From the IMG/VR virus record IMGVR_UViG_2851949629_000002: 51,843 bases of DNA, one strand, 5' to 3'. The position numbers and the translations under genes were made by a program. A model generated the notes under the pieces. It did no database searches. It saw only the letters and a list, made by a program, of their open reading frames with translations, and was not told where the DNA came from. Origin of the DNA: a virus. Its lineage: Duplodnaviria; Heunggongvirae; Uroviricota; Caudoviricetes. Shown here one piece after another: positions 6,223 through 51,843 of this stretch (positions within the stretch are counted from its first letter, which is position 1; each line of letters starts with the position of its first letter).

Positions 6223-9200
6223 TCAACGAATACTGATGCCGGAAGCGGCTTTTTTGGTCACAATCACCGTACAGTCGGTGATATTACCTGCCCACTGATT
6301 GCCTTTATGGAAAACCTTAAACTCCAGAGTGACGCTTCCCCTGCCACTCGGCATATCAATAACCGCACTGTAGCTACCGGGAATAGCCCCTTTAGTTTCT
6401 CTGGATGCGATTAATACACCGTTTTTGCGAACTTCAAAACCATAACCCGTGTATCTTGTACCTCCCGGGTTATTACCACTTCCCGGATCGCTATACGCTA
6501 TTCCGTTAAAGATAATGGGCGGAATAATGATTTGACGGTCAAAGTTATGATCATCGCTTATGGTGACTGTAACCGTCCCGTTTGGTGTTTCCGTGTTACC
6601 CCACGTACCAGCCTGTTTCGGGAATGATTTGGATACAGCTTTAACGAAGTCACCTCTGACCTGAGTCGCCTCCAGCATGCCCTTAATCGTACAGTTTTCA
6701 TTTACCGTGACATTGTTGAGCGTCCCGGCGTTCGCATTCACACTGCCACTGATATCCGCATTTTTAGCGGTCAGCTTTCCGTCCGGAGTCAGGGAAAATG
6801 CCGGTGGATTTCCACCGCTGGTAATGGTGGGGGCCGTCAGGCGTTTCAGGAACACGTCGTTCATGAATATCTGATCGCCCTGACCAACAAACATCGGTTT
6901 TGTGTTGCCATTCGCAGGATTAACCATCGCAATCCTGTCCGCCGCCAGCAGCACCTGACTCTGCATGCCGTCAGGGGTGTTCTCAATACCGGCACCAATA
7001 CCCGCGATATAAAGGCGTCCGTCCTGCATCTGCTGCAGCTTCACAGCCCACATGCTGTTCAGGTTATTATTTGTATCAACCTGAACCTTCTGTATCTGCT
7101 GAATTGCCGCACTCTGGTCTTCCAGTTTCTTATTGACGGTCTGCGTGATTTCATTGCTGACATCCGTAATGGACGTCCTGATTTCAGCCAGGTCAGGCGC
7201 AAGCTGACCGTTATCAATCTGCGTCCACAGCTCCTGAGCCAGATGGGTTTTCCCTATCTCGCCTTTGAAAAAATCCAGATAACCGGATGCATCATCACTC
7301 GGCTGACCAACAGCCTCCACGAATGCCGATTTGCCAACGGTGTTCACACTGCGGATATAAAAGTAATAATCATGGCCCGGTTTGATATTGATACTGGCGG
7401 CTATCCAGTACAGCGCCGTGCCAAGATAGCGTGCTGTGGTTTCAACCTGCCTGATATCCGCAATCCGCTTTTCCGAGAACCAGAACTCAAACTGTACCGT
7501 CGGGTCATAAACAGCAAGATGCGGCGTGGCGGTTATCTGAAAATAGCCCGGCGTCAGCTCAATCCTCGACGGTGCTGCCGGTGCGGCAATCCGGAACGAT
7601 ACCGACGCCGGATCACCCTGCTGCCCCCGGGCATTTACCGCCCGGACTGTCAGCCTGTAGTTCCCCAGCGCCAGTTGCGTGAAGCGGTATGTGGTTTCCG
7701 TCGTCCGGGCCGTGCTGACCAGCCGCTCACTGCCGTCGTCCGCTGTTACGGTCAGACGGAGCAGGAAGCTCACGCCCTTCACCACCTTCGGTGTGTCCCA
7801 TCGCGCCAGCACCTGGTATTCCCCACTGTCTGCGGTGACTTCTGCGGTCAGGTGCTGCACCGCTGGCGGCGTGACACCATTCACCGTGCCGCTCTGGTCG
7901 CCGTCAAAGTGCGCCCCGTTATCCACGATGGCTTCTTTTTCCGGTACATGCTGCACGGCGGTGATGGCATACGTGCCGTCGGCGTTCTCACGGATACTCA
8001 CGCAGCGGAACAGGCGCTGGCGCAGCGTCGGCAGCTTCAGCCCCCACACGCTGTATTCAGCAACGCCGTCAGGAACACGGCTCACTTTCACCTTCACGCC
8101 GTCGGTGACGGACTGAACCTCCACGCTGACCGGATTGCCACTTCCGTCAACCAGGCTTATCAGCGTGGTACCGGAGGATGGCAGCGTGATTTCACGGTCG
8201 AGCGTCAGCGTCCGGGTCTGGCTGTTTACCGCCAGCACGCGCCCGCCGGTGCTGATACCGGCATAGTCATCATCACAGATTTCAATGACATCGCCCGGCA
8301 CATGGCGAAGCCCTTCGGCACCCACGCTGAAGTCCACGGTCTGCGTTTCCAGCAGTTCTGTTTTAATCAGCCACAGCCCGGCTCGGTGCGCCTGCCCCCG
8401 ACTGGTACAGCCAAACGCATCCATCTTCGTGACGTTACGACCGTAACGGGCAATGGCCTGCGAGTCCTCCACAAGCTCTGTTGCCGTCTCCCAGCCGTTA
8501 TCCGGGTCAATCCAGTTCACCTCAACGGCATTATGGCGGTCTTTCAGGGCGCTGAAGCTGTAGCGGAACGGCGCGCCATCATCCGGCATCACCACATTAC
8601 TGCGGTTATAGGTCCACACCTTATCCGACGGTCGGTCCTGCACGAACGTCAGCGTCTGCCCGTTCCATACCGGCATACAGCGCATCGCCGAGCAGAAATC
8701 ACTGAGCACATCCCACGCCTTACGCTGTGTGGTCAGGTACGCATTACAGGTGATGCGCGGCTCCGTGCCGCCAAAGCCGTCCGGCACTGACTGGTCGCAG
8801 TACTGGCCGATGACATACAGCGCCCATTTGTCCACATCCGCCGCACCAAGACGTTTCCCCATGCCGTAGCGTGGATGGGTCAGCATATCCCACAGACACC
8901 AGGCCATGTTATTGCTGTATGCTGGCTTAAACGTTCCGTCCCAGATACCGCTGTATTGCCGCGTCTGCGGGTTATAGTTCGACGGCACCTGCAGAATACG
9001 CCCGCGCAGATGATAATTACGGCTCACCTGCTGGCTGCCGAACTGCTCCGAGTCCACCTGCACGCCGACCAGTGCCGTGTTCGGGTAGCACTGTTTCACA
9101 TCGATGATTTCGGTGTATGACGACCAGAGCGTTTTGTTCTGCAGCTGGTCTGTGGTGCTGTCCGGCGTCATCCTGCGCATCCGGATATTAAACGGGCGCG

Positions 9201-9654
9201 GCGGCAGGTTATCCACCACCACCGAGGCCAGATACTGCGAGGTGGTTTTGCCCTTAATGGTGATGTCTTTTTCCGTCACCCAGCCACCGTTACGTTGTAT
9301 CTGAACCAGCAGGCGGACTTCCGATGGATTCCTGTCCCCCTTTGAGGTGGTTTCCACCAGTGCCTGCACGCCGAAAGTAAAACGCAGACGGTCAATGTTT
9401 GCCGACGTGATGGTCCGGGTGATCGGCGTGTCATATTTCACTTCTGTACCGAGCACCGTCTCGGAGCCGGAGGATTCAAATCCCTCCGGCGGTGTCTGCT
9501 CCTGCTCACCGGCCCGGAACACCACCGTGACGCCGGAGATATTGGTATTCCCCTCACTGTCCAGCACTGGCGTACTGTTCAGCAGCACGCTTTTTAATCC
9601 ATCCACCGGACCTTCAACCGGCCCTTCGCTGATGGCATCGATCACACTCAGCAA
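6223..9654 (-). CDS. J: Tail tip host-specificity protein J, in-frame body; native ATG (9717-9719) is out of frame because of a 1-nt deletion near codon 8; C-terminal receptor-binding region differs from lambda J
   Basis: Track ORF starts at a TTG; upstream ATG GGT AAA GGC AGC AGT AAG GG encodes MGKGSSKG then shifts frame and stops after 17 codons, while the +1 frame continues [26 protein letters not shown]. Confidence 0.8.
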
Positions 9655-9778
9655 CTGCGTGGACTTCAGGTTGTCCTTCGCTTCGCGCGGAGTATGCCCT
9701 TACTGCTGCCTTTACCCATTCCTCACGCTCCATAAACGACAAAACCGCCCGGAGGCGGTTTCACATAAACGTTTTTCA

Positions 9779-10450
9779 TCAGCGACCAATCACCACAACC
9801 TGACCACCATCCCCTTCGTCTGCCGTGCTGATCTCCTGAGAGACCACCCGCGACCCCACGCGCATTTCACCGTACAGAACCGGCAGAACATTGCCCTGGG
9901 CAACCATGTTATCCAGTGAGGAGAAATAGGTGTTCTGTTTGCCGTTATCCGTTGTCTGTGTACGGGGAGTTCTGGCTTTCGGTGCCAGCATCTGCGCCAC
10001 ACCACCGAGCACCATACTGGCACCGAGAGAAAACAGGATGCCGGTCATACCACCGGCCCCAATGGCTGCCCCCCATGCTGCAAGGGTGGCCCCGGCGGTA
10101 AAGAATGATCCGGCAATGGCGGCAGCCCCCAGGACAATCTGGAATACGCCACCTGACTTGGCCCCGACGACTCTGGGAACAATATGAATCACAGCGCCAT
10201 CAGGCAGAGTCTCATGTAACTGCGCCGTTAATCCGGACGTGCTGACATCCTGCCCGGCAATCCGTACCTGATACCAGCCGTCGCTCAGTTTCTGACGAAA
10301 CGCCGGGAGCTGTGTGGCCAGTGCCCGGATGGCTTCAGCCCCCGTTTTCACACGAAGGTCGATGCGGCGACCAAATCGTTGTAAATCCCCGTAAAGGCAG
10401 ATGCGCGCCATGCCCGGTGACGCCAGAGGGAGTGTGTGCGTCGCTGCCAT
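9779..10450 (-). CDS. I: Tail tip assembly protein I
   Basis: 223-aa ORF matching lambda gpI in size and position; overlaps K. Confidence 0.85.
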   Translation of the reverse strand: MAATHTLPLASPGMARICLYGDLQRFGRRIDLRVKTGAEAIRALATQLPAFRQKLSDGWYQVRIAGQDVSTSGLTAQLHETLPDGAVIHIVPRVVGAKSGGVFQIVLGAAAIAGSFFTAGATLAAWGAAIGAGGMTGILFSLGASMVLGGVAQMLAPKARTPRTQTTDNGKQNTYFSSLDNMVAQGNVLPVLYGEMRVGSRVVSQEISTADEGDGGQVVVIGR

Positions 10451-11091
10451 TTGTCGGTGTACCTCTCTCGTTTGCTCAGTTGTTCAGGAATATGGTGCAG
10501 CAGCTCGCCGTCGCCGCAGTAAATTGCGGCGTGATTCGGCACTGATGAACCAAAACAGCACAGCAGCACATCGCCCGGCTGTGCCGCTGACAACGGCACC
10601 TGATACAGCCCCGTCGCCTCCAGATTATCCAGATAGAGATTCTGGCCGTTACGCCACCAGTCATCCTCACGATGAAAATCTGGCATCTCAATTCCCGCCA
10701 GATGGTAAGCGTCCCGGAACAGCGTGTAACAGTCCGTCACCCCGTGCTCAAAGCGCCGCCCGGTGAGATGCGGCACACAGCGGAACTTATGAATCGCCCC
10801 GCGGCAGACCAGCCACCACGACAAATCACTCTGCACCTGCAGCCGCCGGTCGGCCTCACTCAGCCAGGGCAGACCACCGGGGTGGCTGTGGACCAGCGCC
10901 ACAATCTCACCCTGCATCTCTGCCTGCAGCCAGTCCTCCGGAGCCATCCGGAAATACTCCTCCGGCTCACCGGAGATATTCACGCAGGGAAAATATCTTT
11001 CCCCCTCCGGCGTGCTTACCACGAAGCCGCACGACTCCGCTGGCGCACATCGCCGGGCGTGCGCCAGAATCGCTGATTCTGTCTGTGTCAT
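10348..11091 (-). CDS. K: Tail tip assembly protein K (MPN/JAMM + NlpC/P60)
   Basis: ORF MTQTESAILAHARRCAPAESCGFVVSTPEGERYF..., lambda K as recalled; true start may be internal. Confidence 0.85.
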   Translation of the reverse strand: MTQTESAILAHARRCAPAESCGFVVSTPEGERYFPCVNISGEPEEYFRMAPEDWLQAEMQGEIVALVHSHPGGLPWLSEADRRLQVQSDLSWWLVCRGAIHKFRCVPHLTGRRFEHGVTDCYTLFRDAYHLAGIEMPDFHREDDWWRNGQNLYLDNLEATGLYQVPLSAAQPGDVLLCCFGSSVPNHAAIYCGDGELLHHIPEQLSKRERYTDKWQRRTHSLWRHRAWRASAFTGIYNDLVAASTFV

Positions 11092-11096
11092 GGGAT

Positions 11097-11771
11097 TTAC
11101 TGCGAAAGTTTGTTAATGGAAAGGAAGCCGCCAAAGTTGCCGACGTTATTGCGAAACTTACAGCCGCTCAGGCATTTGCTGCATTTATCCTTCGTGATAT
11201 CGGAGGTCGGCTGGTCATATTCATCCGCGACCGCCGGACCGTGATAACCGCACTCATCACCGCGATAGGTCCAGGTGCAGGTATTAGCCAGCATGATGCG
11301 CCCCGGAAAAACGGCACCATCCGTTTCCGTCGGTGTGGACAACACAAAGGAGGCACTGACCGCACTCAGTTCGCTGCACTGCTCTATGCGCCAGCGGCTG
11401 ATCACCTCCTGCTCCGGATCGGCGTCGCTGTTTCCGTTGACGAAGTTCACCGCATCCAGAAAACGGGCGCTGAACTCAACACGCAACATACTGACCCGCG
11501 ACGACCATTTTGCGCAGGTCACCTTTATCTGCCGCCACTCATAAGGCGGCGTCCACAGAAAGGATTTCCAGCCCCCGTGCTCTTCCAGAAACGACTCCAG
11601 CGCCGTGGCCTCCTCACGGGAGACAGACAGCGTCACGCTGTACGTTTTCAGGTCAGCGTTCAGCCCGGCAGGCGCACGCTGGGAATAGCCATCACCAAAG
11701 CGCACCTCCCTGACGGAAGGAGCCGATGTCACATCCATCCCGGGTTTCACTTTCCAGCGGAAGGTTTTCAT
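11097..11771 (-). CDS. Fused tail protein: N-terminal ~103 aa of gpM joined in frame to C-terminal ~120 aa of gpL (apparent 353-bp deletion)
   Basis: 224-aa ORF; starts MKTFRWKVKPGMDV (gpM) and ends ...CSKCLSGCKFRNNVGNFGGFLSINKLSQ (gpL); H-to-K spacing is 675 bp versus ~1028 bp expected for separate M and L. Confidence 0.7.
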   Translation of the reverse strand: MKTFRWKVKPGMDVTSAPSVREVRFGDGYSQRAPAGLNADLKTYSVTLSVSREEATALESFLEEHGGWKSFLWTPPYEWRQIKVTCAKWSSRVSMLRVEFSARFLDAVNFVNGNSDADPEQEVISRWRIEQCSELSAVSASFVLSTPTETDGAVFPGRIMLANTCTWTYRGDECGYHGPAVADEYDQPTSDITKDKCSKCLSGCKFRNNVGNFGGFLSINKLSQ

Positions 11772-14329
11772 CGTCCACCTCCGGAGAACAGACCACCATC
11801 GCGCATCTGTGCCTGGATTTCATCACGGGCACCCTTGCGGGCCATGTCATACACTGCCTTCAGAGCAGCCGGACCTATCTGCCCGTTCGTGCCGTCGTTG
11901 TTAATCACCACATGGTTATTCTGCTCAAACGTCCCGGACGCCTGCGACCGGCTGTCTGCCATGCTGCCCGGTGTACCGACATAACCGCCGGTGGCATAGC
12001 CGCGCATCAGCCGGTAAAGATTCCCCACGCCAATCCGGCTGGTTGCCTCCTTCGTGAAGACAAATTCACCACGATGAACAATCCCCGCTGGCTCATATTT
12101 GCCGCCGGTTCCCGTAAATCCTCCGGTCGCAAAATGGAATTTCGCCGCAGCTGCCTGAATGGCTGTACCGCCTGACGCTGATGCTCCACCACTGGCAGCA
12201 CCGCCAATGGCGCTGCCGATACTCCCGACAATCCCCACCATTGCCTGCTTAAGCAGAATTTCTGTCATCATGGACAGCACGGAACGGGTGAAGCTGCGCC
12301 AGTTCTGCTCACTGCCGGTCAGCATCGCCGCCATATTCTGCGCAATACCATCAAAGGTCTGCGCGGCTGCACTTTTAACCTGCGACATACTGTCCGTGGC
12401 GCTCTCTTCCCACTCACTCCAGCCGGACTTCAGGCCTGCCATCCAGCTCCCGCGAAGCTGGTCTTCAGCCGCCCAGGTCTTTTTCTGCTCTGACATGACG
12501 TTATTCAGCGCCAGAGGATTATCGCCATACTGTTCCTTCAGGCGCTGTTCTGTGGCTTCCCGCGCTGCCTGCCGGTCAGTCAGCCCCCGGCTTTTCGCAT
12601 CAATGGCGGCCCGTTTTGCCCGTTGCTGCTGTGCGAATTTATCCGCCTGCTGCGCCAGCGCGTTCAGGCGCTCCTGATACGTAACCTTGTCGCCAAGTGC
12701 AGCCAGCTGGCGTTTGTACTCCAGCGTCTCATCTTTATGCGCCAGCAGGGATTTCTCCTGTGCAGACAGCTGGCGACGTTGCGCCGCCTCCTCCAGTACC
12801 GCGAACTGACTCTCCGCCTTCCACAAATCCCGGCGCTGCTGGCTGATTTTCTCATTTGCTCCGGCATGCTTCTCCAGCGTCCGGAGTTCAGCCTGAAGCG
12901 TCAGCAGGGCAGCATGAGCACTGTCTTCCTGACGATCGCCCGCAGACACCTTCACGCCGGACTGTTTCGGCTTTTTCAGCGTCGCTTCATAGTCCTTTTT
13001 CGCCGCCGCCATCAGCGTGTTGTAATCTGCCTGCAGAATTTTCCCGTCCTTCAGTGCCTTGTTCAGTTCTTCCTGACGGGCGGTATATTTCTCCAGCGGC
13101 GTCTGCAGCCGTTCGTAAGCCTTCTGCGCCTCTTCGGTATATTTCAGCCGTGACGCTTCAGTATCGCTCTGCTGCTGCGCATTTGTGTCCTGTTGACTCT
13201 GCTGTTCAGCCTTCTTTCTCGCGGCTTCAAGCGCAAGACGGGCCTTTTCACGATCATCCCAGTAACGCGCCCGCGCTTCATCGTTAACAAAATAATCATC
13301 CTTGCGCAGACTCCAGATGTCGTCCGCTTTCTTAAACGCAGCCTCTGCCTTAATCAGCATCTCCTGCGCGGTATCAGGACGACCAATATCCAGCACCGCA
13401 TCCCACATGGATTTGAATGCCCGCGCTGTCCTGTCTGCCCAGGTCTCCAGCGTACCCATGTTCTCTTTCAGGCGGCGGGTCTGGTCATCAAACCCTTTCG
13501 TCGCGGCCTCGTTCGCCGCCTGCAATGCCCCGGCTTCATCGCCGGAACGCTGCAACTGAGCAACATACGCAATCTGCTCCGCCGTCACGTTATGGAACTG
13601 ACGTGCCATCGCTGTCAGTCCCGACGTCGGGTCTGTGGTCAGCTTCCCGAAGGCTTCAGCGACCTTGTCCACCTCCACGCCGGATGCAGAGGAGAAACGC
13701 GCCACACTCTGGCTGATCGCCTCAAACTGCTCACCACCACGCACACCGGCATTCACCAGCGCCGTCAGTGACTCGCTGGTCTGGTTAAACGTCAGCCCTG
13801 CCGCCTGCCCGGCTCTGGACAGGGCCAGAATACGATCTGCCGTCAGTCCCGACTGATTGCCGGAAAGGACCAGCGTTTTGTTGAAATCGGACAGGGTTGA
13901 GTTGCCCTGATACCAGGCATACGCCAGCGCACCAGTCGCCACCGCCAGCGAGGTGGCCCCCACCATCGGCAGGGTGATCGCACCGGCAAGCCCCCTGAAC
14001 ATGGGGATCATCCCGCCGAAGGAGTCCTTAACCTGACCACCCTGTTGCAGCAGGATCAGCCACGGACTTTGCCCGCCTGCAAGCTGCGTGGCCACGTCGG
14101 TGAACTGTGCAGGCAGCATACGCATGGCGGCTTTATACTGCCCGACGGAAATCCCCGCTTTCTGTGCAGCCAGCGCCTGTCGGCTCAGCGACTGTTCAAC
14201 GACTGCCGCTGTTTTTTTCGCATCACTTTCCGTACCGGAAAAATGACGCCTGACTCTGGCCATCTGCTCGTCAAATCTGGCCGCATCCAGACTTAAATCA
14301 ACGACCAGATCGCCTACCGGTTCAGCCAT
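11768..14329 (-). CDS. H: Tail tape measure protein H
   Basis: 853-aa ORF, same length and context as lambda gpH. Confidence 0.9.
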   Translation of the reverse strand: MAEPVGDLVVDLSLDAARFDEQMARVRRHFSGTESDAKKTAAVVEQSLSRQALAAQKAGISVGQYKAAMRMLPAQFTDVATQLAGGQSPWLILLQQGGQVKDSFGGMIPMFRGLAGAITLPMVGATSLAVATGALAYAWYQGNSTLSDFNKTLVLSGNQSGLTADRILALSRAGQAAGLTFNQTSESLTALVNAGVRGGEQFEAISQSVARFSSASGVEVDKVAEAFGKLTTDPTSGLTAMARQFHNVTAEQIAYVAQLQRSGDEAGALQAANEAATKGFDDQTRRLKENMGTLETWADRTARAFKSMWDAVLDIGRPDTAQEMLIKAEAAFKKADDIWSLRKDDYFVNDEARARYWDDREKARLALEAARKKAEQQSQQDTNAQQQSDTEASRLKYTEEAQKAYERLQTPLEKYTARQEELNKALKDGKILQADYNTLMAAAKKDYEATLKKPKQSGVKVSAGDRQEDSAHAALLTLQAELRTLEKHAGANEKISQQRRDLWKAESQFAVLEEAAQRRQLSAQEKSLLAHKDETLEYKRQLAALGDKVTYQERLNALAQQADKFAQQQRAKRAAIDAKSRGLTDRQAAREATEQRLKEQYGDNPLALNNVMSEQKKTWAAEDQLRGSWMAGLKSGWSEWEESATDSMSQVKSAAAQTFDGIAQNMAAMLTGSEQNWRSFTRSVLSMMTEILLKQAMVGIVGSIGSAIGGAASGGASASGGTAIQAAAAKFHFATGGFTGTGGKYEPAGIVHRGEFVFTKEATSRIGVGNLYRLMRGYATGGYVGTPGSMADSRSQASGTFEQNNHVVINNDGTNGQIGPAALKAVYDMARKGARDEIQAQMRDGGLFSGGGR

Positions 14330-25766: not shown

Positions 25767-26444
25767 ATCATAACGTCCGGTTTCTTCCGTGCCAGAACCG
25801 GACTCGCTGGCATGATGAAATATGTGTACCCGGTAACCCCGGTGTGCATCGTTTTTGATTATTCCCGCACACTCGCGCAGAAGGAGTTCCCCGTCGGGCT
25901 ACGGTCTCTGTTAATACGGGAATACGGCGACGATACAGCGCATGATGTGTCAGGCTTGAATACCTTTATCCTTTAAAAGGGATATCAGTTAAGTTATCCC
26001 GTGTAGGGTATAAGCCATTATCAAAGCCACTCTGTAGGGAATGGCTTTTGTGATGGCATCACTTACTCTTTACGCTGCTATCCCACTCATCCCGGAATTT
26101 TGATGGGTTATTGAAACCTTCTGCTGACATAACAACTCCTTCAATGTTTGGCTGAAATTAGGATGTCTTTCCATCAGTCCGCCACCACAAAGAATCTTTT
26201 TTGCCATAAGGCAGGAGGTTCATCTTTCAGTGGCTGCCGGTGTTATTTCCCCACTTACTGGCTTGGGTTGTTTCGTGGTACTGCCGTTAACTGGTGGCGC
26301 ACAGATTTAGTTAAATCCGTTCTCGCCTGAACTATCTTTTACATACCCGGATTGTGGGGATGTAAATCACGGTTTCATTATCAAGCCCACCAGTAGATGG
26401 GCTTTGTAATGAAGAGTTGTTATGAAAATTGCTCTAAACAAGCA

Positions 26445-26969
26445 TTAATAGCCATCAGAAGTAATCGCTACAGATTTCAATCCCTCAATGTCATCCTTGG
26501 ACAGGGCGAACCATTCACCGTGCTTTCTCTTTGCGGCAAATTTGCGATGAAGCATGTTTTCAGTTTCTCTTCCACCAGGGATCAGGCACTCAAGCTTCAA
26601 GCAGTCTGGTCCAGAGTTGCCAAGCGATTTGATGCGTTGTGGAATGTTGGATGAATACCCAATTTTGGTTAGCCCAGTTTTCTTCGATGACAAAACGTAT
26701 ACCTGAGGAGGTTCTTTTCTCTGGTCTTCCATTACACGTCTCATTGTTGCCATAAGTCCGCCGTGCATCAGCATTTCAACAAAGAACGCTGACCGAACAC
26801 CTGACGACTTAAGCATGCCAGAAAATTCACTTGCCAATTCCATTAACTCTGCGATGTTTTCAGGAACTTTTTGGCAGTTATCTTCCTTGTATAAGGAAAT
26901 CATTCTTTGAAGCTTTTCTTCTAATTGGTTCATAGCGTCTTTACCTTTTAGAAAGTGAGCCTGTCTCAC
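26445..26969 (-). CDS. T5orf172 (GIY-YIG-like) domain protein, moron
   Basis: 174-aa ORF; C-terminal VYVLSSKKTGLTKIGYSSNIPQRIKSLG...ENMLHRKFAAKRKHGEWFAL fits the T5orf172/MUG113 motif pattern as I recall it; sits where lambda carries bor. Confidence 0.55.
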   Translation of the reverse strand: MRQAHFLKGKDAMNQLEEKLQRMISLYKEDNCQKVPENIAELMELASEFSGMLKSSGVRSAFFVEMLMHGGLMATMRRVMEDQRKEPPQVYVLSSKKTGLTKIGYSSNIPQRIKSLGNSGPDCLKLECLIPGGRETENMLHRKFAAKRKHGEWFALSKDDIEGLKSVAITSDGY

Positions 26970-27082
26970 AGAAAAGCCGCCCCGAGATGGTCGCCACCAT
27001 ATACGGCAGTTCTCAGGCTCAACTTTCTGAAAGGCTCGGGTGATGTAATATGCGCGTGAGATGCGCTGTGAAATTCAGATGT

Positions 27083-27108
27083 AAAAAAAGCCCCGCATCG
27101 CGAGGCTC
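27083..27108 (-). terminator. Rho-independent terminator after Rz (end of lysis cassette)
   Basis: Minus strand AGCCTCGCG-loop-CGGGGCT hairpin followed by TTTTTTT, ~30 nt past the Rz stop. Confidence 0.55.
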
Positions 27109-33884: not shown

Positions 33885-34336
33885 AAATCCACCCCGTAAA
33901 TCCAGTCAGTGTTTGTCAGGTCGAGTTTTGGTTTGCTGGCTGTCACGCCTGCCTGTTGCTTGTTACGGTTGATTTCGAGCTGGGTCCACTTGTCGCGGAG
34001 TTTGGCCGGACTCAGCACGTTACCGGACCAGAAGTTGTCCTGGCAGGCCCAGCGGAAAAGCACACACATATCGCGGTGGTTACGTCCGTCACGTTCACGC
34101 ATCAGGCGGATATCGTTAGCCCACCCAGCAAAATTCGGTTTTCTGGCTGATGGTGCGATAGTCTTCACCATGTCAAACATCCACTCTGCGGCGGTCAGGT
34201 CTTCTGCTGTCCCCCACTTGCTGCCGCTCTGAATTGCAGCATCCGGTTTCACCACAGAAAGGTCGTTTTCTGGCTGGTCAGAGGATTCGCCAGAATTCTC
34301 TGACGAATAATCTTTTCTTTTTTCTTTTGTAATAGT
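33881..34336 (-). pseudogene. O: Replication initiator O, C-terminal fragment, cut by IS insertion
   Basis: Encodes ...MVKPDAAIQSGSKWGTAEDLTAAEWMFDMVKTIAPSARKPNF... up to the IS boundary; adjacent ori AT-rich element. Confidence 0.85.
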
Positions 34337-34366
34337 GTAAGCGTCAACGGAGCACCGTATTGACGC

Positions 34367-35720
34367 TTATTTATTAGTGAGTACTACGTTCCATGGCAGG
34401 AGTTCGTCAACTCGGTTGGAAGGCCATTCCGGCAGTACGCTCAGGATATGGCGCAGATACGCTTCCGGATCGATACCATTCAACCGGCAGGTGCCGATCA
34501 GCCCGTACAACAGTGCACCACGCTCGCCGCCGTGATCGCTACCGAAGAACACGTAATTTTTCTTTCCGAGACAGACTGCACGAAGCGCTCTTTCCGCTGT
34601 GTTATTGTCCGCCTCCGCCAGACCGTCATCACAGAAGTTGCACAACGCAACCCAGTGCTTCCTGATATACCGGAACGCATCTCTCAGACGGCATTTTTTC
34701 GATAACGTGTGTTCTTTCTCCTGCATCAGCTTATACAGGGAAGTCAGTAGCGGTTTACTCTGCATTTGCCTGACCGCCAGGCGTTCAGACACCGGCAACC
34801 CGCGTATTTCGTGCTCAATGGCGTACAGTTCACTGATTCGCTTCAGGGCTTCTTCTGCCGTCGCACTTTTGCTGCTGATGTATACATCGTGGATTTTTCG
34901 CCGGGCATGGGCCCAGCACGCAACTTCTGTCAGTGCACCACCTTCACGTTCTGCACTGAACAACCTGTCGTAACCTGTGAACGCATCTGCCTGCAGGATA
35001 CCCCGGAAGGGACGAAGGTGTTGCTCCGGATGTTTACCCTGATGGTCCGGTGAGTAGGCGAACCAGACCGCCGGAGGTTCTGGCGAACCGGCATTTCGGT
35101 CATCCCGGACATACGTCCAGATATATCCTGTTTTCGCCTTCTTCCTGCCCGGTGCCAGTACTTTTACTGGTGTGTCATCAGTGTGAACCTTGCGGGTGTT
35201 CATCACATAACTGTACAGGGCATCATTCAGCGGAGTCATTAACTGGCAGCACGCATCAACCCAGTTGGAGAGTAAGGCACGGCTCAGTTCGACACCCTGG
35301 CGGGCAAAGATTTCACTCTGACGATACAGTGGCAGGTGTTCGCAGTATTTTCCCGTTAACACGCGGGCAAGTAACCCCGGGCCCGCGATACCACGCTCTA
35401 TCGGACGGGATGGTGCCGGTGCTTCAACGATGCAGTCACATTTTGTACAGGCTTTTTTTACCCGTTCTGTGCGGATCACTTTCAGGGCGCTGCTCACCAG
35501 CTCCAGTTGTTCTGCGCTGACTTCCCCCAGATAATCCAGCTCACCGCCACACTCCGGGCAACAGCTTTCTTCTGGCTCCAGGCGGTATATTTCACGGGGG
35601 AGATGTGCCGGTAACGGACGACAATGGCGCGACTGTCGCAACTGGCGGGGAACCAGCGGGTCATCCTCACGCCCACTGTAACGATCGCTTTCCTGCTCGC
35701 GTTGTTTCAGCAGGACTTCA
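34367..35720 (-). pseudogene. Outer IS66 transposase TnpC, C-terminal ~440 codons, separated from its N-terminus by the inner IS
   Basis: ORF continues ...LLKQREQESDRYSG upstream to the inner-IS junction; ~90% similar to the intact inner TnpC. Confidence 0.8.
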
Positions 35721-35813
35721 GCCTGTTCGTAAGCGTAAACTGACCGCCGTATGTAGCCATCAGACGAGAATTGGTAACTTAGACGCCCATCTGATATAGA
35801 CGGACATCTAAGT

Positions 35814-36239
35814 ATGGAATTACAGGACTGGCGAAAAGAACCTCGTAAAAACTATTCGAATGAATTCAAACTTCGTATGGTGGAACTGGCATCACAACCT
35901 GGAGCTTGTGTTGCACAGATTGCACGTGAAAATGGCGTCAATGATAATGTTATTTTCAAATGGCTCAGGCTCTGGCAGAACGAAGGGCGTGTTTCGCGGC
36001 GTCTTCCGGTAACGACCTCTTCTGACACTGGCGTTGAATTATTACCTGTAGAAATAACGCCGGATGAGCAGAAAGAACCTGTGGCGGCCATTGCGCCGTC
36101 TTTATCCACTTCCACTCAGACCAGAGTCAGTGCCAGTTCCTGCAAGGTGGAATTCCGTCACGGTAACATGACGCTGGAAAATCCATCGCCAGAGCTGCTC
36201 ACAGTGTTGATCCGTGAACTGACCGGGAGGGGAAGATGA
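35814..36239 (+). CDS. IS66 accessory protein OrfA (TnpA)
   Basis: 141-aa ORF, first gene of the IS66 three-gene arrangement. Confidence 0.8.
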   Translation: MELQDWRKEPRKNYSNEFKLRMVELASQPGACVAQIARENGVNDNVIFKWLRLWQNEGRVSRRLPVTTSSDTGVELLPVEITPDEQKEPVAAIAPSLSTSTQTRVSASSCKVEFRHGNMTLENPSPELLTVLIRELTGRGR

Positions 36240-36586
36240 TCTCACTCCCATCAGGTACCCGTATCTGGCTCGTTGCCGGCGTTACCGATATGCGTAAATC
36301 CTTCAACGGACTGGGAGAACAGGTACAACATGTGCTGAATGATAATCCCTTCTCCGGTCACCTGTTTATCTTCCGTGGCCGACGGGGTGACACCGTCAAA
36401 ATTCTTTGGGCTGATGCTGATGGTCTGTGCCTGTTCACCAAACGCCTGGAGGAAGGCCAGTTTATCTGGCCTGCGGTACGTGACGGCAAGGTATCCATTA
36501 CCCGCTCGCAACTGGCAATGCTCCTCGATAAGCTGGACTGGCGTCAGCCAAAAACATCCAGCCGTAACTCACTGACAATGTTGTAA
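36236..36586 (+). CDS. IS66 accessory protein OrfB (TnpB)
   Basis: 116-aa ORF MISLPSGTRIWLVAGVTDMRKSFNGLGEQ... overlapping orfA stop. Confidence 0.85.
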   Translation: MISLPSGTRIWLVAGVTDMRKSFNGLGEQVQHVLNDNPFSGHLFIFRGRRGDTVKILWADADGLCLFTKRLEEGQFIWPAVRDGKVSITRSQLAMLLDKLDWRQPKTSSRNSLTML

Positions 36587-36616
36587 AAAACTCCTGACCG
36601 CATTATAAAAACGGTC

Positions 36617-38230
36617 ATGAGTCAGAAATACCTCATTCGCATCGCAGAGCTGGAAAGGTTGCTCTCTGAGCAGGCTGAAGCCCTCCGTCAGAAAGACCAG
36701 CAACTGAGTCTGGTTGAAGAGACGGAAGCCTTCCTGCGCTCTGCACTGACACGTGCCGAAGAAAAGATCGAAGAAGATGAACGGGAAATAGAACATCTGC
36801 GGGCTCAGATAGAAAAACTGCGCCGGATGCTGTTCGGTACCCGTTCTGAAAAACTGCGTCGTGAAGTTGAACTGGCTGAGGCTCTGCTGAAACAACGTGA
36901 ACAGGACAGCGATCGTTACAGTGGGCGGGAAGACGATCCTCAGGTTCCCCGCCAGTTGCGACAGTCGCGCCATCGTCGTCCGTTACCGGCACACCTTCCC
37001 CGTGAAATACACCGCCTGGAGCCAGAAGAAAGCTGTTGCCCGGAGTGTGGCGGTGAGCTGGATTATCTGGGGGAAGTCAGCGCTGAACAGCTGGAACTGG
37101 TGAGCAGTGCCCTGAAAGTGATCCGCACAGAACGGGTAAAAAAAGCCTGTACAAAATGTGACTGTATTGTTGAAGCACCGGCGCCGTCCCGCCCGATAGA
37201 GCGTGGTATCGCGGGCCCCGGATTACTTGCCCGCGTGTTAACGGGAAAATACTGCGAACATCTGCCACTGTATCGTCAGAGTGAAATCTTTGCCCGCCAG
37301 GGTGTCGAACTGAGCCGGGCCTTACTCTCCAACTGGGTTGACGCGTGCTGCCAGTTAATGACACCGGTGAATGATGCCCTGTACCGTTATGTAATGAACA
37401 CCCGCAAGGTTCACACTGATGACACACCGGTAAAGGTACTGGCACCGGGTCAGAAAAAGGCGAAAACAGGGCGTATCTGGACGTATGTCCGGGATGATCG
37501 CAATGTGGGTTCGTCATCTCCTCCAGCGGTCTGGTTCGCGTACTCGCCGAACCGGCAGGGGAAACACCCGGAGCAACACCTCCGCCCCTTCCGGGGTATC
37601 CTGCAGGCGGATGCGTTCACAGGTTACGACAGGTTGTTCAGTGCAGAACGTGAAGGTGGTGCACTGACAGAAGTTGCGTGCTGGGCCCATGCCCGGCGAA
37701 AAATCCACGATGTATACATCAGCAGCAAAAGTGCGACGGCAGAAGAAGCCCTGAAGCGAATCAGTGAACTGTACGCCATCGAGGATGAAATACGGGGATT
37801 ACCGGAGTCAGAGCGTCTTGCCGTCAGGCAGCAGCGAAGCAAAGTGTTACTGACGTCGCTGCATGAATGGATGGTGGAGAAGAATGGTACGCTGTCGAAA
37901 AAATCCAGACTGGGCGAAGCGTTCAGCTATGTACTGAATCAGTGGGATGCCCTCTGTTATTACAGTGATGACGGTCTGGCGGAGGCGGATAATAATGCTG
38001 CGGAAAGAGCGCTTCGTGCAGTCTGTCTCGGAAAGAAAAACTTTATGTTCTTCGGCAGCGATCACGGCGGCGAGCGAGGAGCACTGTTGTACGGGCTGAT
38101 CAGCACCTGCCGACTGAACGGTATCGATCCGGAAGCGTATCTGCGCCATATCCTGAGCGTACTGCCGGAATGGCCTTCCAACCGAGTTGACGAACTCCTG
38201 CCATGGAACGTAGTACTCACCAATAAATAA
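36617..38230 (+). CDS. IS66 transposase TnpC
   Basis: 537-aa ORF with N-terminal coiled-coil, CxxC zinc motifs and DDE-type core. Confidence 0.85.
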   Translation: MSQKYLIRIAELERLLSEQAEALRQKDQQLSLVEETEAFLRSALTRAEEKIEEDEREIEHLRAQIEKLRRMLFGTRSEKLRREVELAEALLKQREQDSDRYSGREDDPQVPRQLRQSRHRRPLPAHLPREIHRLEPEESCCPECGGELDYLGEVSAEQLELVSSALKVIRTERVKKACTKCDCIVEAPAPSRPIERGIAGPGLLARVLTGKYCEHLPLYRQSEIFARQGVELSRALLSNWVDACCQLMTPVNDALYRYVMNTRKVHTDDTPVKVLAPGQKKAKTGRIWTYVRDDRNVGSSSPPAVWFAYSPNRQGKHPEQHLRPFRGILQADAFTGYDRLFSAEREGGALTEVACWAHARRKIHDVYISSKSATAEEALKRISELYAIEDEIRGLPESERLAVRQQRSKVLLTSLHEWMVEKNGTLSKKSRLGEAFSYVLNQWDALCYYSDDGLAEADNNAAERALRAVCLGKKNFMFFGSDHGGERGALLYGLISTCRLNGIDPEAYLRHILSVLPEWPSNRVDELLPWNVVLTNK

Positions 38231-38256
38231 GCGTCAATACGGCACTCCGTTAACGC

Positions 38257-38520
38257 TTACGCCTGTTCAACCTCACTACGCAGTTTTTCAGAACGGGTTC
38301 CGAACAGCATCCGGCGCAGTTTTTCTATCTGAGCCCGCAGATGCTCTATTTCTCGCTCATCTTCTTCGATCTTTTCTTCGGCACGTGCCAGTGCAGAGCG
38401 CAGGAAGGCCTCCGTCTCTTCAACCAGACTCAGTTGCTGGTCTTTCTGACGGAGGGCTTCAGCCTGCTCAGAGAGCAGCCTTTCCAGCTCAGCGATGCGA
38501 ATGAGGTATTTCTGACCCAT
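38257..38520 (-). pseudogene. Outer IS66 TnpC N-terminal fragment (87 codons)
   Basis: MGQKYLIRIAELERLLSEQAEALRQKDQQL... ends at the inner IS junction. Confidence 0.8.
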
Positions 38521-38550
38521 GGCCGTTTTTATAATCCGGCCCGGCGTTTT

Positions 38551-38901
38551 TTACAACATTGTCAGTGCGTTAAGGCGGGATGTTTTTGGCTGACGCCAGT
38601 CCAGCTTATCGAGGAGCATTGCCAGTTGCGAGCGGGTAATGGATATCTTACCGTCATGCACCGCAGGCCAGATAAACTGACCTTCCTCAAGGCGTTTGGT
38701 GAACAGGCACAGACCATCAGCATCAGCCCACAGGATTTTAATCGTGTCTCCCCGTCGGCCACGGAAGATAAACAGGTGACCGGAGAAGGGGTTATCATCC
38801 AGCACATGCTGTATCTGCTCCCCCAGACCGTTGAAGGATTTACGCATATCAGTAACGCCGGCAACGAGCCAGATACGGGTACCTGATGGGAGTGAAATCA
38901 T
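38551..38901 (-). CDS. Outer IS66 OrfB (TnpB)
   Basis: 116-aa ORF ~90% similar to the inner orfB. Confidence 0.8.
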   Translation of the reverse strand: MISLPSGTRIWLVAGVTDMRKSFNGLGEQIQHVLDDNPFSGHLFIFRGRRGDTIKILWADADGLCLFTKRLEEGQFIWPAVHDGKISITRSQLAMLLDKLDWRQPKTSRLNALTML

Positions 38902-39335
38902 CGTCCCCTCCCGGTCAGCTCACGGATCAACACCGTGAGCAGCTCTGGTGAAGGATTTTCCAGCATCATTTTACCGTAATGGAATTCCACATGGCAGGAA
39001 GCTGCACAAGCAACTGATAATGCCTCCGGAGCAGGAGCATCTGTAGCACAGCGCGGGGTGTCGATAAGTTCCACTGGAACCAGAGTCGGAGAGGCCGGAA
39101 AAGATTGTGATACTGTAGGGCCTACAATAGTTGGAGGCATTCTACGAGAAATACGTCCTTCTCTTTGCCAGAGGCGTAGCCATTTAAAAATCAGGTTGTT
39201 ATCAACGCCATGTTCCCGGGCCAGTTGTGCAACATTGGCATTTGGTTTCGAAGCCAGTTCAACCATATGAAGTTTAAATTCATTAGAAAATATCCGGCGG
39301 GTTCCGGAGCGCCAGTCTGTAGGTTTATCCATCAA
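38898..39335 (-). CDS. Outer IS66 OrfA (TnpA)
   Basis: 145-aa ORF, diverged homologue of the inner orfA. Confidence 0.75.
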   Translation of the reverse strand: MMDKPTDWRSGTRRIFSNEFKLHMVELASKPNANVAQLAREHGVDNNLIFKWLRLWQREGRISRRMPPTIVGPTVSQSFPASPTLVPVELIDTPRCATDAPAPEALSVACAASCHVEFHYGKMMLENPSPELLTVLIRELTGRGR

Positions 39336-39415
39336 TAGAACTCCGTCTAATTTAGAAGGAGCTCTAATTTAGTCTGCAAGGAGCAAGTGTTACAGACGGC
39401 ATTGGCTTTACGCTT

Positions 39416-39869
39416 ACGTAATAGTGTCTTTTGTGTCCCCCTGTTTTGAGGGATAGCAATCCCCCAATTTGAGGGATGTTTTATCCCTCGTTTTAGGGGA
39501 TTGTCCCTCGTTTTGAGGGATACACCATTCTGAGATGTTTTTATTTGGTCCAAACATGCCGCCTTGCTGCTTGATAATATTCATTCTGACGAGTTCTAAC
39601 TTGGCTTCATTGCACCGTTTGACAGGTAACTTTGTAATCTCGCTAAGTTGAGAATCGGTGATTCTGTCCATTGGTTTATTCCACCCATAGGTTTTACGCA
39701 GAATGGCAAGCAGCACTTTAAACTGTCGCTTGGTCAGATCTGCGCCCGAATAAGCCTCAAGCAGCATATTTGATAGTCTGGCGTAACCATCATCGAGATC
39801 TGCCACATTACGCTCCTGTCCGGCAAAGTTACCTCTGCCGAAGTTGAGTATTTTTGCTGTATTTGTCAT
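39416..39869 (-). pseudogene. O: Replication initiator O, N-terminal fragment
   Basis: MTNTAKILNFGRGNFAGQERNVADLDDGYARLSNMLLEAYSGADLTKRQF..., lambda O N-terminus; reading frame runs into the IS. Confidence 0.85.
39436..39521. repeat. ori-lambda iterons (four ~18-bp O-binding repeats)
   Basis: Four copies of TCCCTC-N6-GAGGGA-like inverted units inside the O N-terminal coding region. Confidence 0.8.
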
Positions 39870-42794: not shown

Positions 42795-43659
<865 letters not shown>

Positions 43660-49158: not shown

Positions 49159-49377
49159 ATGTACTTGACACTTCAGGAGTGGAACGCACGCCAGCGACGC
49201 CCAAGAAGCCTTGAAACAGTTCGTCGATGGGTACGCGAGTGCAGGATATTCCCTCCTCCGGTTAAGGATGGAAGAGAGTATCTGTTCCACGAATCAGCGG
49301 TAAAGGTTGACTTAAATCGACCAGTAACAGGTAGCCTTTTGAAGAGGATCAGAAATGGGAAGAAGGCGAAGTCATGA
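49159..49377 (+). CDS. xis: Excisionase Xis
   Basis: 72-aa MYLTLQEWNARQRRPRSLETVRRWVRECRIFPPPVKDGREYLFHESAVKVDLNRPVTGSLLKRIRNGKKAKS, lambda Xis. Confidence 0.95.
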   Translation: MYLTLQEWNARQRRPRSLETVRRWVRECRIFPPPVKDGREYLFHESAVKVDLNRPVTGSLLKRIRNGKKAKS

Positions 49378-50425
49378 GCGCCGGGATTTACCCCCTAACC
49401 TTTATATAAGAAACAATGGATATTACTGCTACAGGGACCCAAGGACGGGTAAAGAGTTTGGATTAGGCCGAGACAGGCGAATCGCAATCACTGAAGCTAT
49501 ACAGGCCAACATTGAGTTATTTTCAGGACACAAACACAAGCCTCTGACAGCGAGAATCAACAGTGATAATTCCGTTACGTTACATTCATGGCTTGATCGC
49601 TACGAAAAAATCCTGGCCAGCAGAGGAATCAAGCAGAAGACACTCATAAATTACATGAGCAAAATTAAAGCAATAAGGAGGGGTCTGCCTGATGCTCCAC
49701 TTGAAGACATCACCACAAAAGAAATTGCGGCAATGCTCAATGGATACATAGACGAGGGCAAGGCGGCATCAGCCAAGTTAATCAGATCAACACTGAGCGA
49801 TGCATTCCGAGAGGCTATAGCTGAAGGCCATATAACAACAAACCCGGCCGCAGCCACTCGCGCTGCAAAATCAGAGGTAAGGAGATCAAGACTTACGGCT
49901 GACGAATACCTGAAAATTTATCAAGCAGCAGAATCATCACCATGTTGGCTTAGACTTGCAATGGAACTGGCTGTTGTTACCGGGCAGCGAGTTGGTGATT
50001 TATGCGAAATGAAGTGGTCTGATATCGTAGATGGATATCTTTATGTCGAGCAAAGCAAAACAGGCGTAAAAATTGCCATCCCAACAACATTGCATGTTGA
50101 TGCTCTCGGGATATCAATGAAGGAAACACTTGATAAATGCAAAAAGATTCTTGGCGGAGAAACCATAATTGCATCTACTCGTCGTGAACCGCTTTCATCC
50201 GGCACAGTATCAAGGTATTTTATGCGCGCACGAAAAGCATCAGGTCTTTCCTTCGAAGGGGATCCGCCTACCTTTCACGAGTTGCGCAGTTTGTCTGCAA
50301 GACTCTATGAGAAGCAGATAAGCGATAAGTTTGCTCAACATCTTCTCGGGCATAAGTCGGACACCATGGCATCACAGTATCGTGATGACAGAGGCAGGGA
50401 GTGGGACAAAATTGAAATCAAATAA
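49355..50425 (+). CDS. int: Integrase Int (tyrosine recombinase)
   Basis: 356-aa MGRRRSHERRDLPPNLYIRNNGYYCYRDPRTGKEFGLGRDRRIAITEAIQANIELF..., lambda Int. Confidence 0.95.
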   Translation: MGRRRSHERRDLPPNLYIRNNGYYCYRDPRTGKEFGLGRDRRIAITEAIQANIELFSGHKHKPLTARINSDNSVTLHSWLDRYEKILASRGIKQKTLINYMSKIKAIRRGLPDAPLEDITTKEIAAMLNGYIDEGKAASAKLIRSTLSDAFREAIAEGHITTNPAAATRAAKSEVRRSRLTADEYLKIYQAAESSPCWLRLAMELAVVTGQRVGDLCEMKWSDIVDGYLYVEQSKTGVKIAIPTTLHVDALGISMKETLDKCKKILGGETIIASTRREPLSSGTVSRYFMRARKASGLSFEGDPPTFHELRSLSARLYEKQISDKFAQHLLGHKSDTMASQYRDDRGREWDKIEIK

Positions 50426-50535
50426 TGATTTTATTTTGACTGATAGTGACCTGTTCGTTGCAACAAATTGATAAGCAATGCTTTTTTATAATGCCAACTT
50501 AGTATAAAAAAGCAGGCTTCAACGGATTCATTTTT
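50426..50535. other. attL: Prophage attL (P' arm, 15-bp core at 50499-50513, bacterial B arm)
   Basis: Reverse complement contains GCCTGCTTTTTTATACTAAGTTGGCATTATAAAAAAGCATTGCTTATCAATTTGTTGCAACGAACAGGTCACTATCAGTCAAAATAAAATCATTATT, i.e. lambda core GCTTTTTTATACTAA with P' arm. Confidence 0.85.
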
Positions 50536-50559
50536 CTATTTCATAGCCCGGAGCAACCT

Positions 50560-51843
50560 GTGAACACATTTTCAGTTTCCCGTCTGGCGCTGGCATTGGC
50601 TTTTGGCGTGACGCTGACCGCCTGTAGCTCAACCCCGCCCGATCAACGTCCTTCTGATCAAACCGCGCCTGGTACCTCTTCTCGCCCGATTCTGTCGGCA
50701 AAAGAAGCGCAGAATTTCGATGCTCAACACTATTTTGCATCCCTGACACCAGGTGCTGCAGCGTGGAATCCTTCCCCGATTACCCTGCCTGCGCAACCTG
50801 ACTTTGTTGTCGGCCCGGCGGGCACTCAAGGTGTAACGCATACCACGATTCAGGCGGCGGTAGATGCGGCAATTATCAAGCGTACCAACAAGCGCCAGTA
50901 TATTGCCGTGATGCCTGGTGAGTATCAGGGAACGGTATATGTCCCTGCCGCTCCGGGTGGAATTACTCTGTACGGTACAGGTGAAAAACCGATTGATGTG
51001 AAGATTGGGCTTTCCCTTGATGGTGGCATGAGCCCTGCCGACTGGCGTCACGACGTCAACCCGCGCGGCAAATATATGCCAGGTAAACCAGCGTGGTATA
51101 TGTACGATAGCTGCCAGAGCAAACGCAGCGACAGTATCGGTGTTCTCTGCTCTGCGGTCTTCTGGTCACAAAACAATGGCCTGCAACTGCAAAATCTGAC
51201 CATCGAAAACACGCTGGGCGATAGCGTAGATGCAGGTAACCATCCGGCGGTGGCACTGCGTACTGATGGTGACCAGGTACAGATTAACAACGTTAACATT
51301 CTCGGTCGTCAGAACACCTTCTTTGTCACCAACAGCGGTGTGCAGAACCGTCTGGAAACGAATCGTCAGCCGCGTACGCTGGTGACCAACAGCTACATTG
51401 AAGGGGATGTGGATATCGTTTCTGGTCGCGGCGCAGTGGTGTTCGATAACACCGAATTCCGCGTGGTGAACTCACGTACTCAGCAAGAAGCGTATGTGTT
51501 TGCACCGGCTACGCTGTCCAACATTTACTACGGTTTCCTCGCCGTAAACAGCCGTTTCAATGCTTTCGGTGATGGTGTGGCGCAACTGGGCCGCTCGCTG
51601 GATGTTGATGCCAATACCAACGGTCAGGTGGTGATCCGTGATAGCGCCATCAACGAAGGTTTTAACACGGCTAAACCGTGGGCCGATGCGGTGATCTCTA
51701 ATCGTCCGTTTGCGGGTAATACCGGCAGCGTAGATGATAACGACGAAATACAGCGCAATCTGAATGACACTAACTACAACCGCATGTGGGAATACAATAA
51801 CCGCGGCGTGGGTAGTAAAGTGGTTGCAGAGGCGAAGAAGTAA
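50560..51843 (+). CDS. ybhC: Host lipoprotein YbhC (pectinesterase-fold acyl-CoA thioesterase), chromosomal flank of att-lambda
   Basis: 427-aa ORF with lipoprotein signal MNTFSVSRLALALAFGVTLTAC, matches E. coli YbhC as recalled. Confidence 0.9.
   Translation: MNTFSVSRLALALAFGVTLTACSSTPPDQRPSDQTAPGTSSRPILSAKEAQNFDAQHYFASLTPGAAAWNPSPITLPAQPDFVVGPAGTQGVTHTTIQAAVDAAIIKRTNKRQYIAVMPGEYQGTVYVPAAPGGITLYGTGEKPIDVKIGLSLDGGMSPADWRHDVNPRGKYMPGKPAWYMYDSCQSKRSDSIGVLCSAVFWSQNNGLQLQNLTIENTLGDSVDAGNHPAVALRTDGDQVQINNVNILGRQNTFFVTNSGVQNRLETNRQPRTLVTNSYIEGDVDIVSGRGAVVFDNTEFRVVNSRTQQEAYVFAPATLSNIYYGFLAVNSRFNAFGDGVAQLGRSLDVDANTNGQVVIRDSAINEGFNTAKPWADAVISNRPFAGNTGSVDDNDEIQRNLNDTNYNRMWEYNNRGVGSKVVAEAKK

Follow-up and report, generated by a model that had tools for sequence, protein, structure and literature searches.

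The DNA that we analysed, a stretch of 51,843 nucleotides referred to as the window in this text, carries a lambda-like prophage. In its tail gene region, with gene H directly upstream and gene K directly downstream, we found a single ATG-initiated ORF of 224 aa on the minus strand (11097..11771), in which residues 1-102 of the tail tip protein gpM are joined in frame to residues 111-232 of the tail tip protein gpL. The features needed for the following discussion are given here with the evidence for each in brackets.

11097..11771, minus strand: fused M'-'L ORF (ORF and translation, alignments to 8iyk_M and 8iyk_L, PF05939 and PF05100)
11467..11469, minus strand: deletion junction with CGC microhomology (alignment with relatives, sequence, breakpoint computation)
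11467..11771, minus strand: M-derived part, codons 1-101 and the first two bases of codon 102 (alignments)
11097..11466, minus strand: L-derived part, the third base of codon 110 and L codons 111-232 (8iyk_L alignment)
11768..14329, minus strand: tape-measure gene H, 853 aa, intact (99.9% identity to H of phage ev099 over the full length)
10348..11091, minus strand: gene K (C40/JAB peptidase), intact (100% identity to ev099 K)
9666..9719, minus strand: start region of gene J with a 1-nt deletion in the G-run 9697-9699 (alignment with relatives; shared by two further contigs, L004 and L005)
34337..39417, no strand assigned: two nested IS66-family elements, 5,081 bp, in gene O (tblastn, Pfam domains, iterons)

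The position of the fused ORF is that of M and L in lambda: the stop codon of H overlaps its start, and K begins 5 nt past its stop. In a phmmer search against PDB sequences, residues 1-109 of the ORF aligned to residues 1-109 of 8iyk_M (lambda 'Tail tip protein M') and residues 95-224 to residues 103-232 of 8iyk_L (lambda 'Tail tip protein L'). Both parts could also be assigned to their Pfam families. The gpM family, PF05939, scored 128.7 bits against a gathering cut-off of 39 and covered profile positions 1-106 of 108 at ORF residues 2-106; the gpL family, PF05100, scored 193.1 bits against a cut-off of 25 and was matched only at profile positions 75-206 of 206. An earlier note on this DNA had described a single 224-aa ORF in which the gpM N-terminus runs into the C-terminal part of gpL, and the translation together with these matches bears this out.

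Compared with lambda gpM (PF05939, 8IYK chain M), residues 1-102 of the fusion are 94% identical and lie in the same place after H, with the same overlap of stop and start. However, 122 gpL residues have taken the place of the last seven residues of gpM (EFEQVVN) and of its stop codon, with the L-derived RFLDAVN standing where the gpM C-terminus should be. The M domain carries a 115-residue C-terminal extension and is not a free ring subunit of about 109 aa. The remainder of the ORF, residues 103-224, equals residues 111-232 of lambda gpL (PF05100, 8IYK chain L, the [4Fe-4S] hub); only two residues differ across the aligned stretch of 130 residues, and the stop codon and the spacing to K are the same. 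What distinguishes it from gpL is the absence of residues 1-110 and of its own start codon, and the prophage is left without a separate L gene.

To define the lesion, the reverse complement of window positions 11000-11900 was aligned with phage ev099, the prophage of E. coli O78 strain 3 and lambda. The four-way alignment contained one gap of exactly 353 bp (alignment columns 433-785), the size that the earlier note had given as approximate, and the breakpoints lie at positions 13388 and 13741 of ev099, 353 nt apart. Over the 1,101 bp of window 10900-12000, identity is 100% to ev099 and O78 strain 3 and 95% to lambda. A megablast query with this segment gave matches in 198 phage and 4,364 E. 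coli records, and all 60 of the 60 matches listed aligned in two pieces spanning 1,451-1,454 bp, as against 1,101 bp in the window. The best matches were phage ev099 (NC_049953) and the E. coli O78 strain 3 prophage (CP084096), both of which encode separate M (109 aa) and L (232 aa) proteins. H, K and I align with their ev099 counterparts over the whole length, ungapped and with 99.5-100% identity, so that only the M-L interval is short. The statement in the earlier note that the neighbouring genes keep lambda spacing thus holds for these three genes but not for J, two genes downstream, which has lost one nucleotide.

The junction reads GAGTTCAG-CGC-CCGTTTT, with the CGC at window positions 11469..11467. 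Since the same CGC is found at both breakpoints in the intact relatives, in M codons 101-102 and in L codons 109-110, the two ends share a 3-bp microhomology; the earlier note had suggested looking for one at this point. Repeats linking M and L do not exceed 8 bp. In the intact arrangement the M stop and the L start overlap as TGATG, which sets L off by one frame relative to M. The fusion is in frame because a deletion of 353 bp (2 mod 3) compensates this offset. Restoration of the frame is a 1-in-3 outcome and no sign of selection.

It is conceivable, though improbable, that the join was guided by an ancient paralogy, with the C-terminal strand of gpM corresponding to a strand of the gpL HDI domain (both folds being beta-sandwiches of the tail-tube type) and the two parts meeting structurally in register. 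At the join, the M sequence 'RVEFSAEFEQVVN' resembles the L sequence 'RKVYARFLDAVN', HMMER extends the gpM alignment through the L-derived residues 103-109, and the same register holds an 8-nt repeat, GGTGAACT, at a distance of 15 nt downstream from the CGC. When the DNA itself was scored, the observed register gave 36 matches out of 83, the best of 780 offsets, and ranked second to third with shorter flanks; with 15-nt flanks, however, it came only 67th of 930. BLASTP detected no similarity between M and L, and a profile-profile comparison with hhalign (19 M against 24 L homologues) returned a probability of 0.16%, its best and non-significant pairing being M 83-105 with L 130-151 rather than with L 103-117. 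Furthermore, the crossover took place at the 3-bp CGC and not at the 8-bp repeat. Given the BLASTP and hhalign results, we rejected the idea that the join arose because the M C-terminus and L 103-117 are paralogous and in register, and retain it as a low-confidence alternative to a simple deletion at the CGC.

The exact 224-aa protein could also be found on the Logan contig ERR1937262_13 (L004) and on DADSOV010000063.1 of assembly GCA_017760925.1 (L005). It is on record as HBA6468918.1 and HBA6649894.1, annotated as 'phage minor tail protein L', and occurs on three contigs. Relative to the window, L005 has 2 SNPs in 12.6 kb and L004 has 24 in 20 kb (the same 2 as in L005 plus 22 clustered in J), and the junction is identical in both. 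The deletion is therefore real, being common to three assemblies from at least two distinct isolates. The 22 clustered SNPs of the 24 that separate the window from L004 fall within 565 bp of J (window 8626-9190, L004 12582-13146), which suggests a recombination patch from another lambdoid prophage and not clock-like divergence.

For a wider survey we used a junction 51-mer designed so that intact sequences cannot seed a match. It matched none of 5,426 complete E. coli genomes and none of 50,697 phage records, and the exact junction 26-mer was absent from species-representative genomes, IMG/VR viral contigs and JGI metagenome contigs. The deletion allele is thus rare and lineage-specific.

What the deletion removes can be read from the lambda virion. 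In the cryo-EM structure, the distal tail protein gpM is a beta-sandwich of 109 residues that forms a six-subunit ring, and the hub protein gpL is a trimer (PMC10721106). At its N-terminus gpL has a tube-like beta-sandwich, HDI (residues 1-166), and at its C-terminus a domain that binds iron (residues 154-232) with Cys173, 182, 205 and 212, and the last tail ring is built from three gpL HDI and three gpJ HDII domains (PMC10721106). The 30 M and 15 L chains in five PDB entries likewise amount to six gpM and three gpL per entry. The deletion takes two thirds of the HDI beta-sandwich (gpL 1-110) and cuts inside the fold rather than removing a whole domain, and the L-part of the fusion comprises the last third of the HDI domain and the Fe-S domain. 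All four cluster cysteines (lambda C173, C182, C205 and C212) are conserved in the fusion, at positions 165, 174, 197 and 204, where binding of the cluster is predicted.

Lambda L is an essential tail gene that acts early in tail-tip assembly. The best-supported reading is that tail assembly is lost and that the prophage alone cannot build the tail-tip initiator, because no intact gpL is encoded and the gpL HDI domain is needed for the terminal ring. The function of gpM might be retained in the fusion, as the M-like domain is nearly whole, and the intact Fe-S domain is a further counterpoint to complete inactivity. The earlier note had already remarked that the fusion lacks the N-terminal region of L, which we can now specify as gpL 1-110, and its conclusion that tail tip assembly is probably defective gains support as an inference from the missing HDI residues and the lack of a separate L. 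It had overlooked that the ORF lies on the minus strand, that the breakpoint falls inside the HDI fold and that the prophage carries at least three inactivating lesions.

These further lesions emerge from a comparison with ev099, to which the prophage is 97-100% identical across the whole window. The status of ev099 as an isolated phage comes solely from its GenBank/INPHARED record; a literature text search on ev099 returned unrelated matches only. Using tblastn, we compared 70 ev099 proteins with the window and found all of them full-length except M/L, J, O, AraC, the KilA-N region and one hypothetical gene. AraC falls beyond the window start: the window begins inside the prophage, at ev099 coordinate 25209, and the other attachment junction therefore lies outside it. 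The other 40-odd phage genes are intact, with 87-100% identity to ev099, bar one small indel in the hypothetical gene and a swap in the KilA-N region. Since the remaining compared genes are intact, the decay must be recent.

Window 26037-27084 departs over about 1 kb from the corresponding ev099 segment (46051-45300): the ev099 KilA-N gene has no counterpart there, and the neighbouring Rz-like spanin aligns with gaps and at only 87% identity. The difference resembles an exchange of mosaic modules more than a clear lesion. At window 43378-43388, a small indel relative to ev099 (~34084-34105), flanked by an 11-nt overlap of two BLAST segments, causes the alignment of ev099 gp46, a hypothetical protein of 88 aa, to end at residue 75.

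The integrase gene int (49355-50422) is intact and 99.7% identical to ev099 int. The flank at 50400-51843 consists of the 3' end of int followed by ybhC; it is present in 5,416 of 5,426 E. coli genomes and 100% identical among the matches listed. The site next to ybhC is the classical lambda attachment site (attB). The element is thus integrated, with host chromosome at lambda attB beside int, as is expected of a cryptic prophage.

In J, the tail-fibre/host-specificity gene, the G-run at 9697-9699 reads GGG instead of GGGG. The missing base lies at the boundary of codons 7 and 8 and leads to a stop after 17 codons, which leaves the rest of the gene (6223..9654, 1,143 codons) without its native start. 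This is not a homopolymer error of one assembly, because L004 and L005 carry the same GGG, and the frameshift is probably real. To order the lesions, we looked among complete genomes for the J frameshift together with intact M and L; the sole full-length and 100% identical match was E. coli ESBL 15, and a second match (94%/97.9%) lies on a 68-kb plasmid record. We rejected ESBL 15 as evidence for the order of the lesions, because nearly every one of its tail genes is flagged 'frameshifted', which looks like sequencing noise. In this genome (L007, NZ_CP041678.1 3272784-3284834), the annotation 'frameshifted' is given to every tail gene from G to the N-terminal gene of the tail fibre; these frameshifts are most likely homopolymer errors in the assembly, and records of this type can yield false matches in searches for frameshift alleles.

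The replication gene O is split near codon 150, into residues 1-151 and 149-299, by the IS66 block, on either side of which (34329-34336 and 39418-39425) stands the 8 bp of duplicated target, GTAATAGT. The block encodes tnpA, tnpB and tnpC with the domains PF01527, PF05717 and PF03050; a complete tnpA/B/C set at 35814-38230 on the plus strand lies inside a second IS66-family copy on the minus strand. The insertion is located 18 bp after the fourth ori iteron. Judged against the lambda ori as we know it, it presumably parts the O-binding iterons from the AT-rich unwinding region, so the replication origin is probably disrupted in cis. When the O::IS66 junction was searched in complete genomes, the matches covered the IS end only.

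Genes essential for lytic growth thus carry inactivating lesions, namely the M-L deletion, the J frameshift and the insertion in O/ori. The prophage is cryptic, or defective, through ordinary mutational decay, and the M-L deletion is not the sole cause of its defect. Frameshifts, deletions and IS insertions are common in E. coli lambdoid prophages, and defective ones are sometimes still mobilised with help from others (PMC2669165). With a median of 2 and up to 13 M-L loci per E. coli genome, it is conceivable that co-resident lambdoid prophages supply gpL or gpJ in trans or repair the gene by recombination.

Could the fusion instead be a working protein that was selected, either as a single-chain subunit of distal tail and hub or as a dominant-negative 'poison' subunit directed against related lambdoid phages? 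We consider this very unlikely. Points in its favour are the preserved frame, a nearly complete M fold, an intact Fe-S domain that keeps its four cysteines, and the persistence of the allele in at least two diverged isolates; natural L homologues, moreover, accept a large inserted domain around profile position 91, not far from the breakpoint. A preserved frame, however, has a prior of 1 in 3. The breakpoint cuts the HDI beta-sandwich in mid-fold, the copy numbers of the two partners differ (six gpM as against three gpL), and the allele was seen on only three contigs and in none of the 5,426 complete genomes. The prophage also carries two other knock-out lesions, in J and in O/ori, and lambda tail genes are late genes that are silent in the lysogen, as is well established for this phage.

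No conserved M-L fusion was present in the best 150 of 2,366 hits (E <= 0.001) when 1.84 billion cluster representatives were searched. Those two-stretch hits that we examined (330-440 aa) proved to be L proteins with an inserted domain and not M-L fusions. We accordingly rejected a conserved natural M-L fusion: this search and the Pfam scans gave only domain-inserted L homologues and a fragment of an H-M fusion (P0191), and for a recurrent architecture of distal tail protein and hub (Dit-hub, M-L) there were only two sporadic records from close relatives, P0006 and P0008. An equivalent fusion in plaque-forming relatives, which the earlier note had named as evidence against its reading, is thus neither found as a conserved architecture among these hits nor present as this junction among the 50,697 phage records.

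P0006 (295 aa) and P0008 (345 aa) resemble the fused ORF in that PF05939 and PF05100 are found in one polypeptide, in singleton or doubleton records. P0006 joins M 1-64 to L 2-232 and reflects a different deletion, and P0008 is a full-length M read through into a full-length L. Both keep the whole L domain, which the ORF described here does not. They sit among many sporadic, mostly singleton L proteins that are chimeric or rearranged, which argues that rearrangement of the M-L region, or its misassembly, is common noise.

The domain-inserted gpL homologues form a separate observation. Proteins of 360-440 aa (P0220, P0225, P0232, P0222 and P0231) carry a large insertion at about position 91 of the PF05100 profile, which in P0220 is of the Laminin_G_3/ConA-like lectin type, a hint that the L subunit carries a carbohydrate-binding module in the hub proteins of some siphophages.

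The variant in which the fusion is retained as a poison subunit, with the ring-forming domain of M tethered to the Fe-S domain that contacts gpJ, appears extremely unlikely. The late operon would have to be trans-activated by a superinfecting or co-resident lambdoid phage, whereupon the fusion would co-assemble and block tail tips. Its evidence consists of the preserved frame and the intact sub-domains. If it were true, the fusion would amount to an interference mechanism borne by a prophage.

That the 353-bp gap is an artefact of assembly or sequencing, with M and L still separate in the real genome, is hardly credible: several near-identical lambdoid tail modules in one E. coli genome can confuse assemblers, and many singleton chimeric L proteins in the database resemble misassemblies, but the same junction was obtained in three assemblies from different pipelines and at least two isolates (2 and 24 SNPs apart), the 3-bp microhomology is clean, the flanks are 100% identical to intact relatives, and no M-L repeat above 8 bp exists that could make an assembler collapse the two genes.

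The ORF is thus very probably the scar of one spontaneous 353-bp deletion in a decaying lambda-like prophage at the lambda attachment site of E. coli. The CGC of M codons 101-102 would have been joined to the CGC of L codons 109-110, either by microhomology-mediated illegitimate recombination or by replication slippage, two routes suggested by the form of the junction, and the reading frames would have come into register by a 1-in-3 chance. The ORF encodes a gpM domain that is almost complete, to which the last third of gpL's HDI domain and the Fe-S domain are attached. Without an intact gpL HDI domain, the prophage should fail to build the terminal tail ring, and tail-less, non-infectious heads would result. 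The fused gene would then be a pseudogene-like remnant and not a working part.

Events of this class are thoroughly known, the allele has already been deposited in public databases, and the fusion is not a new kind of protein. The mixture of a deletion, a frameshift and an IS insertion in morphogenesis and replication genes is also seen in other defective E. coli lambdoid prophages, such as those of the Sakai Sp pool (PMC2669165). Unlike these, the prophage described here is very young, the rest of it being 97-100% identical to ev099.

Beyond annotation, the finding has little significance. Gene callers read the fused ORF as intact; its annotation should instead mark it as a pseudogene, an M'-'L fusion produced by a deletion, and the prophage, with its three lesions, should be recorded as defective. 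For the biology of lambdoid prophages, it provides a tidy and datable example of early decay, in which a deletion at a microhomology, a frameshift in a homopolymer and the insertion of IS66 into the replication origin are found together, and the 353-bp junction could mark the lineage of the few E. coli isolates that carry it.
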